The notes beneath the pieces were generated by a model. The model had not been told where the DNA came from. It searched no databases and saw only the letters and a list, made by a program, of their open reading frames with translations. This document shows, piece after piece, positions 2,525 to 55,150 of a stretch of DNA of 64,000 nt. Each line of letters begins with the position of its first letter. Position 1 is the stretch's first letter. This DNA is from Octopus vulgaris (lineage: Eukaryota), in the NCBI GenBank assembly GCA_951406725.2, contig OX597831.1, positions 49,414,001 to 49,478,000 on the forward strand, in the 5' to 3' direction. The position numbers were made by a program, and so were the translations under genes.

Positions 2525-2630
2525 ATAGTTAATCCAAACATGAAAACACACAGAGAAAACACAACAATGCGAGGAGGTGAAACAAGTATAGTGTTATTGG
2601 ACACTCAGGAAAAGAAAGAATGAAGGAGAA

Positions 2631-2663
2631 TTTAACGTTTCGAGCAGAGCTTTTCATCAGAAA
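2631..2663 (-). ncRNA. Minimal type-I hammerhead ribozyme motif (slightly degenerate) in a short insert (~2525-2740)
   Basis: Minus strand reads UUU-CUGAUGA-AAAGC-UCU-GCUC-GAAA-CGUU-AAA. Both core boxes are present, stem III is palindromic (AACGUU) and stem I is UUU/AAA. The base of stem II is an A-C mismatch. Confidence 0.6.
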
Positions 2664-3019
2664 GATAAGAAAAGGAAAGACCCAAGGAAGCGAAGACGGA
2701 GGAACAAAATCGCCAACGATACACCCACGGTCTGACTACCCATGTATATGTGTGTGTAAGTGTATAATTTTAAGTTGAATAAATTCTTATGCACTGAGAA
2801 TAATATAAGCACAAGATTCAATAACTCGTTTCCATAACATGTCACTAAATTCCAAAATATTTTCAGCTTGTTACAATAGCAAAAACTGCTATGATATTGC
2901 ATAATCTTCAAAACAGGCAAAACCCAATGTTCAGAGCAGATTATCTAGAAGAATAGAAAACATAGATATTTCAAATACTTCATTTGTTATGTTCCACAAC
3001 TATTTCAGCAATCCATACG

Positions 3020-3300
3020 AAAACAATTGAGAAATATATCAACCACTCTGCCTGCAACACCAAGACCGAACTGTTGGGCAAGATGAAGGAGATGTTCGGA
3101 GATTTTCCTCAGTGAGGGATCCGTGCACCAGTTTTCGGAGCCGTCTCGAGGTCCTGGTGGAATCTGGAGGCTGCTATTGTCATCTCTCAGCCATAATCTA
3201 ATTCATATTTATTGATTTTTCAAAATGCTTTTATTTTTCGATAGGATATTGTACTTTCTTTTCCTTTCTTGCAAACTATCAAATTTAGCCCGAAAATCCT
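3020..3300 (+). mobile_element. 3' fragment of a DD37D (maT-like) transposon
   Basis: TIEKYINHSACNTKTELLGKMKEMF...CTSFRSRLEVLVESGG resembles the C-terminal part of the element at 34461-35250. Confidence 0.6.
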
Positions 3301-3365
3301 ATTTATATATGTCAGTATGTTTTCTTACTCATAATCATAATCATAAAAGCTGTTTTCATGAATAA

Positions 3366-50436: not shown

Positions 50437-50769
50437 TGAATCTAGCTGATAATTAAGAAATTTGGTAGTCTGGTATATATATATAAAGATATCTAAAGAC
50501 ATTCTGCAGAGATAAGTTTGTAAACATCGTTGAGGAATGATTTAAAACTAAAAGCTGCTTTTCTTAATTCTTTGCAATTTACAACAACGTGCCGATATAA
50601 AGACATTATATCTTTAATATATTTTGACTTGACTATCTAGAATTCATATACATGCCTATATTCACACACATATATATATGCGTATATATACATGTATGTA
50701 TATTTATGTATACATACATATATATGTAATATGCTTGTGTATATTTTGGGTGTGTAGGTTTGATTGGTG

Positions 50770-51200
50770 TGTTAATTAGGTTGTAGGGTGGGTTTTGATG
50801 GAGATGTATTTTGCAGAGATTTTTATTGAATAAATTTGGAGTCATGTTATTGTTTAGAACTTATTCAAGCATATAGAACTTTGTAAGGAAGTGTGAATAT
50901 TTAGGTCTGTCCGCTACAGTTCATGTTATTGTATTTTAGTGATCGTATAGGAAGTTTGAGAACAGCGGATGTGTTAGCAGTTTTAGATATTCTTGGTTCA
51001 AAATTAGCCCAGTATTTAATTTAGTATTTGTGTGTTAATTGTTTTTGTAATGGAATTTTTTAAGGCTTCTCAAAAGAATGTTTGTAGGAGGTATGATTTA
51101 GCTGGTCAGTTTATTTGTTATTGTTGTAATTTAGGAATTTCCTGTTTGTATTTGAAAGGTAGGGGTTATTACTAGGATATATGATTGTGTTGTTAGTTGT
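50770..51200 (-). pseudogene. Highly decayed Penelope-like GIY-YIG remnant
   Basis: Minus-strand pieces FEPRISK, FSNFLYDH*NTIT*TVADR and IFTLPYKV resemble the T.LS..W..K...I.W region; heavily frameshifted. Confidence 0.35.
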
Positions 51201-53639
51201 CTACTGCTCTCGAGAGCTTAGCCTTGGCTTACAAGGCTCAGTTCGGGAAAGCAGTTGACCATCAGAATAGATTATAAATACAGTGGCTCAAGGCAACTGG
51301 ATCCCATTGCGGTATCTTTCCCATTTAAGATGATGAATCTTCAGATTTTGTCATGGCAGTACATGATTGCCGACATTAGAGACGGCATATCTTTAATCTT
51401 TTATTGTTTCAGTTATTGGACTACGGCCATGCTGGGACACTGCCTTGAAGGATTTCAATCGAACGAACTGTCATTGTCCTGCAGTTATACTGGGAAACTA
51501 TCTTCAAGAGTTTCACGCGAACGAATTGACCCCAATACCTAATCTTTTAAAACCTGGTACTTATCTATCGTCTCTTTGAGGAGTAGTATATGAAATTAAG
51601 ATAATATATATGTTTTTTATGTACATCTTCAGAAACGTCTCGATTCTCAATGGTGCACATACACTCATATTTAAGTACACACATACATATAAATATATAT
51701 ATTTATAAGTATGTATGTACGTAATATGTATATAAATATATGTACACATACACTTCCACACACCTACACATATACATACACACACACGCACACACAAGCA
51801 AAACATTTATTTGTCGAGCAATCTGCCTCCATTGGCATATGCGCACACACACGTATATATATATATCTGTTCATATAATTTGACAGTCAGTCAGTCAGTC
51901 AGTCACTCACTCACTCACTCACGTACGCACTCACGCACTCACTCACGTAATCACATAATCACACACATACATAGACGTACATACATGTGTACCATCATAC
52001 ATTTATCAAAAACATTTGTATTTAATGATGTAGACCAATGATGACAACTGACATTTTGTGGCGTTACTTATTTCTTTAACCTTAATTGCACGCTGTTCTG
52101 TATTAATACTGCATTTAAAGAAACTCAACAATTTCACAGAAAATTACAAGAAAAAACACATCGCCAATAATGCTTGCAAGGAAGCATCAACGACAAGTCA
52201 AAGAAATTAAATAAGAAGAAATACTTAAGAGATCTTAATGTCGAATTCAATGTTAGTATAGTGCACAAGAATTTCCTTGTTCATGTCTAAAAGATGTCTT
52301 TGTAGAAGTAAACCAGCTTAAAGCCACAGATCCTATGAAATGTAATTGAATTAGAAAATGCATTCATATGTAGAATTGTATTATACGTCAATGTAAACAT
52401 ACATACATACAGATATACAGATATATTAAGTATATATTACATATGCATACTTATATATATATATATACATATACATACATACACGCATATATATGTATAT
52501 ATATATATATATAGATATGTATATATATTATATATATATATATCTGTATGTATATGCCTGCATATGTATGTATATAAGTACGTAAATACTTATATATGCA
52601 TGTAAAAAGTATATATGAGTATATATATATGTACATATATTACATGCATACATATGTATATATATATATATATATATATATATATATATATATGCATACA
52701 TAATGCATATATATGTATAAATATATATATATATATATATATATATATATATGTTTGTCTATATATATATAGACTCACACACATACACACGCACATATAT
52801 ACATTTACATATCTACATATGTATATATGTATATATGTATGCATGTGTGTATGTGTATGTGCATGCGTATGTGAGTATATGTGTGTGTATTTGTTAGTGT
52901 TTCTTTTGTACTTATTCACGCTTTTCTTCCTTCGCAGCAGTTAATCCGGTCAACAACGTGGTAATGTTCTTTCATTTAACCCTTGGGTGGGGGTGGGGGG
53001 TTTACCTGAATCGGTTGACGTTTGCATACATGTCTGATATACATGTGTATGCGTTCTGCATATGCGAATGTGTGCTTGCAAATCTGCACTCATGCACCGT
53101 GTGTGAGTATGTGCGTTTGTCACGTTAGAACACAAGTATGCGCGTGTTTCATTACTGCTTTCGTGTGGACGTTCATGTGTGTAAATTCCATGTGTGTATA
53201 TGTAACTGTGTGCGTATGTTTATTCAAGAACCTTAAATTTTATAGATATTCACTGAAAGCTTTACTCCATTGTATTTGGGGGACATAAGTTAATCCGCTT
53301 CCTTTATTCTGGGAAGACTTAGCATTTTCGGTTTTTTATTTCTATGGAGATCTTTGTTTCCTATGAATGGCTGTATGTAATATGTACGTATGGATGTTTA
53401 TATGAATATATATTCATGTATTTATATCTGAATATATTTACGCATATATATATATATACGTATATATACATACATACATACATACATACATACATACATA
53501 CATACACACACATATTTATACACATAGGATTATATACACATATGCACATATATACATATACATACATGCATGCACACACAAACATACACACACATATATT
53601 TATATATTGACAATATTAAAAATAAGGATTACTCCGAAG

Positions 53640-55150
53640 TACTAATAGCATTACCTTTAATTCTATAGTTATATACTGCCTTTTAAGATCACAATGTGTT
53701 TCAATTGCACCGATTTGAATTCCTTGAAGTTGCAACCCTATTATAAAACGACGCAGTCTCTCAGTTTCTTAACTTGATGTACCTCGGTATGGCCATTTAA
53801 TGATTTTCTTTTATAAGTCATATAAGTGTAGAGTTGTCCGTTAAGTCAGACGCGAACAATCTTTATTTGAAGTTCTTATCGGAGAATTATTTTCAGTGCA
53901 TCATTACAAAACGTTGTATAGTTTAAATGATAAATATTTATTTATACTTCGAAAATGTGAATTATCCCATGTGCAAGCATCTCAATGCATTCTGTCTAGA
54001 ATTTATTGCATTATCTTTGGATGTTAAAATCCTGTAAAATTCTTCTAAACATTGGTCACATCTATTGGTTCCAGGTCTGTATAGCTTTGCAGTACAAATT
54101 AATTCCCATTTAATCGTATAGTCCTTGTTACTGTCCTTAAAAGACCAGATTAATTTGCTAAGAGTAGTTTAGAACCTTTTATTTTTGTCTTTAAATGAAC
54201 TCAAATGATTTGCCAGTTACCTCTTGAAAATTAACGATGTCCCACCGATATAAGAGAATTCCTTACCCTCAGATATAACTATACATCTATATATTACATT
54301 TTTAGTTTTACACTTATTTCCCACATAACAGGATCCCCGTTTAGAACAACTGCAAAGATAGTTTTTTTTATACTTTCCTCAGATTTAGTTTCAGTCTGAT
54401 CATTCTTTGTAGAATTAAATTCATTTCCACCAAGATCTTTAATACTATTTACTCCTTTAGTTAACGTTCTTTGTTCTATTTCTAGCTGAATTTTTATTCG
54501 ATTTGACATTATTAGTTATGTTATATTGGGTCACTTCCCTTTCCACGGCATTTAATTTCTTAGCATTCCCTTCTATTTGTGTTTCTTTATTCCGTTTAAC
54601 GTTATTATACTTCGAATTTATTACGCTATTCTGATTGTAATCGCAATTTTGAAATTTCGATATTATTTTAACACATTGTGCTGCTATAATTTGTGCAACA
54701 TTACGGCTAAGACAATAATCCGATTTAGTCTTATGCCGATTAAACATTTTGTAATGTTTGTGGCTTCTTGGAAAATATTGTTGAATTGCTATATCAATCA
54801 AATTGGAAAAATTGTAATCTACCTGTTTACCAAGTGGAACGATTAACCATAAAGTATTCTTCGAATTAACATTATAATTTTGATTTCTATACTCGGTTTT
54901 CGAAGGAGTAAGTATTCTCTGATGTCGATCCATTCTAAAGTTAGCGTTTATTCTACTTTTATTTCTATTAATAAATCTTTTAGCTGATTTTATATTAAAA
55001 GAATTTGAGATTTTATTAGAGAATACTATATCCTCATTTCCGTTAGCAGTAACGAGAATTTTGAAGCCGGTTATCAACAATCTTACGATTTTTCCTTTTG
55101 TTATAAATATAATTGTTCACTTGTTTATTTTCACTATTGAAATCACCTAC
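53640..55150 (-). mobile_element. 5'-truncated Penelope-like element (Naiad-like): RT-thumb region, Asn-rich linker and GIY-YIG
   Basis: 54457-55080 gives KNTLWLIVPLGKQVDYNFSNLIDIAIQQYFPRSHKHYKMFNRHKTKSDYCLSRNVAQIIAA, similar to IIWFNPP...HFP..H...IFNR...SY....N...II. Confidence 0.8.
53938..54354 (-). pseudogene. GIY-YIG endonuclease with CxC-x5-C-x5-C linker
   Basis: CSCSKRGSCYVGNKCKTKNVIYRCIVISEGKEFSYIGGTSLIFKR*LANHLSSFKDKNKRF*TTLSKLIWSFKDSNKDYTIKWELICTAKLYRPGTNRCDQCLEEFYRILTSKDNAINSRQNALRCLH. Confidence 0.88.

Follow-up and report, generated by a model that had tools for sequence, protein, structure and literature searches.

Hammerhead-Bearing Inserts in a 64-kb Stretch of Octopus vulgaris DNA as Probable Worn Ends of Penelope-Like Elements

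A 64,000-nt stretch of Octopus vulgaris DNA (contig OX597831.1, referred to here as the window) carries short inserts with minimal type I hammerhead ribozyme motifs. These inserts are probably the worn 3′ ends (pseudo-long-terminal-repeat, or pLTR, segments) and short unit-length derivatives of several hammerhead-bearing Penelope-like element (PLE) families, one of them of the Hydra type, and the stretch at 53600-55116 is probably a broken copy of the Hydra clade that lacks reverse transcriptase (RT). The hammerheads at PLE ends are real but mostly decayed, and one high-copy family of unit length stands out; ribozyme processing of the inserts is putative. Since PLEs are reported to account for 6.83% of the genome of O. 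vulgaris and to fall into 190 families (Bonar et al. 2026, PMC13282606, whose accessible text leaves ribozymes unmentioned), several PLE ends are expected per 64 kb. A preliminary description of the window had proposed at least six inserts with minimal type I hammerheads, possibly spread by a Naiad-like PLE into microsatellites. The hammerhead sequences are present where it placed them and the motif is in excess over shuffled DNA, but all copies are decayed.

Hammerhead motifs and insert families

The microsatellite-masked window was scanned with a scored descriptor of the type I hammerhead and compared with 100 local dinucleotide shuffles; the descriptor weights were fixed after the candidates had been viewed, so this test is not blind. 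Hammerhead-like motifs exceed chance. Three sites score at least 32, versus a shuffle mean of 0.05 (maximum 1), six score at least 28 (1.6 per shuffle), and 14 score at least 26 (6.4 per shuffle, maximum 13). The highest scores fall at 37440(+), 30315(-), 28808(-), 36080(-), and 2660(-), with 30315 and 36080 likely due to chance because they have neither a TA-ending tail nor a second copy. The core is intact at 28808(-) (score 33.3) and at 2660(-) (29.7, with stem II damaged). Two core changes each are present at 17067(+) and 24937(-), which have intermediate scores of 27.5 and 26.1, and at 24992(+) (21.5). Lower in the ranking stand 48862(-) at 25.3, 38785(-) at 24.5, 39164(+) at 12.9, and 53764(-) at 12.3. 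The site 6853(-) scores 22.1, or 27.7 if stem II is taken as 50 nt with stem I almost nil; at 27.7 or above, 11 real sites compare with 2.3 per shuffle (29 shuffles). A strict descriptor found zero perfect hammerhead motifs in the window: every copy is decayed, and none is a perfect ribozyme. Rfam returned no hammerhead family at three sites searched singly, nor among the 150 of 524 whole-window matches listed, which are dominated by microsatellites, and none of 13 stretches folded better than its own shuffles (z from -1.4 to +1.4).

The hammerhead-bearing and hammerhead-like inserts are as follows.

2527-2732, minus strand: family A, a repeat of unit length (about 205 nt) whose middle holds a minimal hammerhead (core 2660-2634, stem III ACGU, triplet GUU)
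16894-17195, plus strand: family C, a decayed hammerhead at 17059-17104 (stem III ACCGGU, two changes in the core) followed by its tail at 17115-17195, an inverted tail copy lying at 16894-16975
24826-25050, both strands: family D/E pair, head-to-head decayed Hydra-type hammerheads at 24937(-) and 24992(+), the left arm extended by a tail of about 55 nt that ends in (TA)n
28742-28816, minus strand: best copy of family D/E, with stem I CUGU/ACAG, stem III ACUCAGAGU, and GUA
37255-37645, plus strand: family I/J, a unit at 37377-37645 with a hammerhead at 37432-37492 and an inverted tail copy at 37255-37355
40192-40301, plus strand: another copy of family I/J, with 89% identity across 111 nt, the unit being cut at 40301 by a repeat resembling a short interspersed nuclear element (SINE)
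38737-39212, both strands: fold-back F, hammerhead-like, with 95%-identical arms around expanded microsatellites
6643-6860, minus strand: possible decayed hammerhead, uncertain, with CUGAAGA, a 50-nt stem II region, GAAACAUGUA, and stem I nearly absent; no fold-back
48700-48870, minus strand: weak hammerhead-like stretch with GAAACAGCUGUA and a 12-bp hairpin, scoring inside the shuffled range

The best-preserved single copy is that of family D/E, in which the core and stems I and III of 28771-28816 are intact and one stem II pair is lost; its 3′ end abuts (TA)17, with a TG run and a SINE-like repeat on the 5′ side. Likeness to 24889-24940 (77% over 52 nt) places the 24904/24988 pair in the same family. 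Family I/J holds the top descriptor score; the hammerhead at 37432-37492 has one core change and a palindromic stem III of 10 nt. Its two copies share one 5′ start position, after TATATA, and their core changes complement each other. At the lower end, the core of fold-back F is broken because GAAA is changed to GAUA in both arms, and the 6643-6860 stretch has a second, weaker motif near 6710-6740(-). Among the loci named previously, 28771-28816, 24904/24988, and 2631 hold up and 17063 is plausible, but 6705-6853, 38741/39160, 48808, and 53690 are weak or broken. These last are single copies scoring 12-28 that lack the combination of intact core and stems. As for the four or more unrelated stem III families proposed, ACGU, ACCGGU, and ACUCAGAGU are supported as separate, ACAUGU is uncertain, and a fifth (AUCACGUGAU-type, at 37440/40248) had been overlooked.

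Fold-backs with real arms occur at 16894-17195 (arms 16894-16975/17115-17195, 73 of 82 positions identical), 24880-25045 (24880-24955/24974-25045, 53 of 76), and 38737-39212 (95% over 58 unique nt), and a fourth, previously missed, lies at 37255-37590; there is no fold-back at 6640-6945. All four are oriented with their 3′ ends outward, which bears out the suggested head-to-head arrangement of inverted PLE ends. In families C and I the inverted arm spans only the tail behind the hammerhead. A 3′ tail common to the families was also considered and rejected: 5 of the 45 pairs fell below a nominal p of 0.03, one of them the known arm pair of family C, and the other four gave shuffle p values of 0.02-0.12.

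A link to a specific PLE clade comes from a hammerhead model built from Hydra elements in metagenome contigs. Of 79 Hydra loci, 69 matched through the C-terminus and 53 of those had at least 120 nt downstream; 33 of the 53 carry a canonical hammerhead 71-396 nt past the open reading frame (ORF). The model alignment comprises 28 hammerheads, after removal of three duplicates, one core change, and one long variant. Its stems covary, in part by construction because the loci were selected for a canonical hammerhead. Applied to 23 held-out loci, the model gave 12 matches in 10 loci at 20-48 bits. Its sole significant match in the window is 28771-28816(-) (32.8 bits, E 9e-7), the next best being 17059-17104 at E 0.31, and the combination of stems I and III at 28771 also occurs in two of the Hydra loci, L040 and L075. 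Families A, C, and I/J were not recognized by the model. The proposed PLE origin is accordingly borne out through the Hydra-type hammerheads at 28771 and 24904/24988, but for A, C, and I/J it is argued from architecture alone.

As a separate observation, a conserved motif, GCTC(N8-24)GAGCAC, follows the hammerhead at a distance of 30-60 nt in Hydra loci (L008, L010, L023, L054, and others; 7 of 25 tails); L010, L023, and L054 have two copies of it past the hammerhead, ahead of the next start codon. The motif may be a cis element and was not encountered in the literature consulted; it has no match in the window at up to one mismatch.

These features would fit a mechanism whose steps are drawn from the PLE literature and proposed here for these loci, the fold-back structure itself being observed. 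The GIY-YIG endonuclease of an intact PLE elsewhere in the genome would nick a (TA)n tract, and an RNA would then be reverse-transcribed, starting at its 3′ end. Synthesis would mostly end early, often leaving an inverted 5′-truncated copy and hence a head-to-head fold-back. Its position, 70-400 nt behind the PLE reading frame, would cause the hammerhead to be copied too. Cleavage would be expected only from a dimer in direct tandem transcripts. The motifs of a fold-back, lying on opposite strands, would form a long hairpin instead and so supply no cis dimer needed for cleavage.

The GIY-YIG element at 53600-55116

Two pieces of PLE coding sequence are recognizable in the window.

53600-55116, minus strand: broken Hydra-clade PLE piece, comprising an unmatched 84 aa, a post-thumb segment, a linker, an endonuclease, a hammerhead remnant, and a TA-rich end
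5272-5601, minus strand: very decayed second Hydra-type GIY-YIG C-terminal piece, weak (tblastn E 1e-5 for 1 of 150 queries; profile E 0.002, probability 14%), ending about 150 nt short of a microsatellite

The GIY-YIG element proposed at 53640-55150 does exist, as a remnant. Its match to PF01541 is weak (E 0.005, below the family cutoff), and it has 858 relatives at E 1e-10 or better among 1.84 billion representatives. On the minus strand, a post-thumb segment (54885-54660) is followed by a low-complexity linker with two frameshifts, a GIY-YIG endonuclease with several stops (54369-53941), a hammerhead remnant near 53772-53682, and the TA-rich end. The remnant lies about 177 nt past the ORF, scores 12.3, and has no match to the Hydra model. 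All five relatives of 658-759 aa that were examined are RT-plus-endonuclease proteins with DKT, and the long relatives show RWR, RWF, or RWQ rather than an exact RWK where that region is present. Alignment of the window element to full-length relatives begins only at about residue 446-480 and shows the same order, post-thumb segment and then endonuclease, the latter thus lying C-terminal to the RT thumb region. RT is absent from all six frames of the window in searches with Hydra profiles only, and the 212-aa frame at 54463-55098 has no relatives in either length class and no atlas match, which is weak evidence. The copy is no autonomous member but a fragment or a derivative without RT.

The clade assignment follows from the order of domains and from short motifs. 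The linker reads CSCSKRGSC (CxCx5C), the endonuclease contains CDQC..E..N..CLH (CxxC and CxH around E and N), and CCHH is missing. Among 150 relatives, the CxC linker is found in 121 and the CxxC/CxH motifs in 115. Hydra PLEs as described by Craig et al. (PMC8557442) share with the window element a C-terminal GIY-YIG domain, the CxCx5C linker, and CxxC/CxH without CCHH; they also have a hammerhead behind the ORF and (TA)n targets, features for which the window element shows the remnant and the TA-rich end. The window copy differs in being broken and without RT, and the hammerheads of A, C, and I/J do not fit the Hydra model. Naiads are alike in their (TA)n preference, inverted truncated copies, and presence in octopus, but they are described in the same source as having an N-terminal endonuclease followed by the CxC linker and RT, with CCHH and no canonical hammerhead, the reverse of the order seen here. 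Judged by these diagnostics, the element belongs to the Hydra clade, and the label "Naiad-like" is not supported. Having no RT and carrying stops and frameshifts, this copy cannot act in trans.

The region upstream of the Hydra piece, 55116-55300(-), has a palindrome and a CCAAT box, and no match was found for the first 84 aa of the open frame. The element might be an RT-less, endonuclease-only derivative with its own promoter.

Family A, a high-copy repeat of unit length

Contigs of four sequencing runs (X1, X4, X7, and X14) were placed on 2527-2860 at 80% likeness, giving 2855, 2676, 1374, and 1028 records per run. X14 may be an RNA run, and its cover was left out of account. In X1, depth is 3e4-1.3e6 over 2527-2730, 3409 at 2731-2742, and 56.6 on the flank, with sharp edges; the depth of placed contigs is not copy number, but it indicates a large family. 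The majority letters restore the G10.1-C11.1 pair that closes stem II (position 2652) and lengthen stem I, and U4 is the only core position that differs in at least 25% of depth. The hammerhead core is intact in the family A majority. The expectation of high-copy inserts with an intact core is thus borne out for family A, the sole family examined. Family A had no match when its pattern was sought in prokaryote genomes and viral contigs.

In all four runs the loose ends of contigs are (TA)n on the left and, on the right, TA-rich but different from contig to contig, a pattern from which both ends look fixed. The evidence consists of 24 of 392 rows listed, from contigs that are short, mostly 90-240 nt. 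There is no consistent continuation past 2732, the family occurs in runs under three organism labels, and it combines fixed ends and high copy number with an absence of coding sequence. No tandem (go-back) joint was found among the contigs placed, short as they are, and the fold of the window copy is no better than those of its shuffles (z 0.17). In X1, the stretches 2587-2610 and 2695-2718 are several to about 40 times deeper than the hammerhead-bearing 2623-2694, unlike in X4, X7, and X14; subfamilies may share their ends and differ in the middle.

We lean slightly toward family A being copied in trans as a unit, in the manner of a SINE. The alternative is a truncation hot spot of a longer parent, which would look alike. 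Internal (TA)n tracts upstream of the hammerhead, found in 10 of 30 Hydra loci versus 5.4 expected, are weak evidence for such a hot spot. Family A, and perhaps I/J, could tentatively be taken further, as a dedicated protein-free, non-tandem hammerhead SINE of about 205 nt, copied by PLEs into (TA)n and present at very high copy number in several related species. If true, this would add a third arrangement to those of pLTRs and tandem retrozymes, and with copies in the thousands, selection on minimal PLE hammerheads could be tested directly. The in vivo role of PLE hammerheads is described as open in the literature (PMC8557442; PMC7761336). A unit like family A would suit that question well since copies in the thousands make selection on the core measurable and the small size permits tests of the entire unit.

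A broader version of this idea extends it to most or all families: each would be a dedicated mini-retroelement, non-autonomous, with a fixed 5′ end of its own and a ribozyme maintained by selection, and PLE enzymes acting in trans would spread it through RNA that had cleaved itself and was perhaps circular. The two fixed ends of family A, its lack of run-on, and its three organism labels speak for it, as does the common 5′ start of both I/J copies. Unit sizes of 205-270 nt match those given for pLTRs (193-218 bp; PMC3846280) and coral retrozymes (220-245 nt; PMC7229834), and pLTR sequences alone are described as enough for mobilization in trans in a rotifer (PMC3846280). However, the window contains no direct tandem copy, and the contigs placed show no go-back joint. 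The near-zero fold score of family A is unlike that of self-paired retrozyme circles (PMC7761336), and the loose-end evidence is thin. In addition, eight of nine predicted Xenopus retrozyme dimers failed to cleave, one being active, in the work of Li, Clavereau and Pollet 2026 (bioRxiv 10.64898/2026.07.22.740005), who propose that animal retrozymes are non-autonomous PLE derivatives. We consider this broader version rather unlikely, and worn PLE ends with some unit-length derivatives remain the preferred reading.

Weighing of the evidence and relation to known systems

Several results weigh against reading the inserts as PLE ends with real hammerheads. Sequence links D/E alone to a PLE clade; for A, C, and I/J the link is one of architecture, and no parent for these three emerged from six short motifs, which had no relevant match among the consensus sequences available from Craig et al. 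Five of the named sites or arms (48862, 38785, 24992, 39164, and 53764) score at or under the shuffled range, and similarity of tails between families is not significant over the 45 pairs. Within family A, U4 is C in a sizable minority (21-54% of depth across the four runs), and copy number and the majority core were examined for this family only. Finally, 16 of 24 hammerhead-free SINE-like copies lie within 25 nt of a microsatellite, versus a 9% background, so that microsatellite flanking is general in the genome and not specific to hammerheads.

This last point bears on the claim of microsatellite homing. A microsatellite lies 4-153 nt downstream of the cleavage site at 10 of 12 hammerhead sites or arms, where the one-sided background within 150 nt is 25%. 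Such adjacency is unspecific, but (TA)n at both ends was found for family A, the one family tested. The case for (TA)n targeting is therefore based on the contig ends of family A and on the literature and not on adjacency in the window.

If the motifs were chance matches in AT-rich DNA and the flanking microsatellites genome background, the composition of the window would offer some help: its G+C content is 35%, simple repeats account for 18% of it, and a microsatellite lies within 150 nt at 41% of free positions. The 6.4 shuffled sites at scores of 26 or more and the missing Rfam hammerhead match point the same way. This explanation is highly improbable and is refuted for families A, D/E, and I/J by the excess of top scores over 100 shuffles, the E value at 28771, the recurrence of two families inside the window, and the high copy number of family A, whose majority letters repair the structure. 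Chance may well account for 6705-6853, 48808, 30315, and 36080.

That a Naiad-like element mobilized the inserts, the trans activity coming from the copy at 53640-55150, is the least credible proposal and is refuted for that copy: Naiads do prefer (TA)n and have left remnants in octopus, but they are described as long inactive in cephalopods (PMC8557442), and the window copy has Hydra motifs and no RT.

Much of what the inserts display under the reading as PLE ends is already in print, including minimal hammerheads that occur singly or as opposite-strand pairs, targeting of (TA)n, a Hydra family in octopus, and retrozymes derived from PLEs. Craig et al. 2021 described Hydra-1_Obim from Octopus bimaculoides, with a hammerhead and a (TA)n preference, as well as Hydra-2_aMil, which has the same stem I and ACUC-N-GAGU stem III as the window hammerhead at 28771 (PMC8557442). 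Compared by eye, the window protein and hammerhead differ from Hydra-1_Obim and so represent another family. PLE insertions with an inverted 5′-truncated copy and a one-sided tail were described in the same work and by Arkhipova et al. 2013 (PMC3846280); the tail resembles that of about 55 nt on the left arm of family D, and the inverted truncated copies resemble the window fold-backs. Minimal hammerheads in metazoan genomes are mostly single and dispersed, with opposite-strand pairs 100-700 bp apart (Cervera and De la Pena 2014, PMC4209133). They share with the window inserts a short stem I, a bulged base before stem II, a palindromic stem III, and the presence of several unrelated families per genome, but the accessible part of that paper includes no octopus set and no fixed unit length.

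Non-LTR retrozymes are similar in being noncoding units of 200-400 nt with a type I hammerhead and a proposed origin from pLTRs and movement by PLE enzymes, and dispersed monomers occur (PMC7229834; bioRxiv 10.64898/2026.07.22.740005). They are defined, however, by direct tandem repeats and circular RNAs, neither of which is seen here, and family A is single, TA-flanked, and weakly folded. The term "retrozyme-like" is not supported in this defined sense, tandem copies being absent both from the window and from the short contigs of family A. Solo pLTRs of Adineta vaga are described as having few copies (PMC3846280), whereas family A is TA-flanked and of high copy number. The retrozyme survey of Cervera and De la Pena 2020, as far as its text is accessible, includes a mussel and no cephalopod (PMC7229834). 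The suggestion that no cephalopod description exists was too strong, given Hydra-1_Obim and the 235 hammerhead-1 loci reported in the giant squid genome (PMC6962438). No account of a fixed-length hammerhead family in cephalopods was found in the literature, where the search yielded Craig et al. 2021, the giant squid genome paper, and octopus repeat surveys; it lay outside Repbase, Dfam, the O. vulgaris repeat library, and the bioRxiv supplements, which may contain one. Apart from the correction of the clade from Naiad to Hydra, the window inserts add a few uncatalogued families to a well-described PLE biology.

Other repeats are plentiful in the window, with three abundant SINE-like families alongside mariner remnants. 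A G+C-rich stretch at 11750-12150 and a 60-codon nonrepetitive frame at 30247-30426(-), neither with a meaningful Pfam match, could be exons or element fragments. SINE-like inverted pairs and a 58-nt palindrome, at 45710-45992, 61098-61545, and 29570-29627, bear no relation to the hammerheads. Near-perfect inverted arms of 65 nt (3366-3430/3570-3634) overlap a direct duplication of 133 nt that is 98% identical (3437-3569/3635-3767), and the structure at 3366-3767 is either like a miniature inverted-repeat transposable element or a local rearrangement. Tc1/mariner remnants occupy 236-1112, 14041-14258, 17534-17944, and 34675-35052, with a match to HTH_48 at 17534 (E 3e-11) and a weak one to DDE_3 at 34675; the first contains an inverted duplication (236-607/733-1112), and the second is a small inverted pair.

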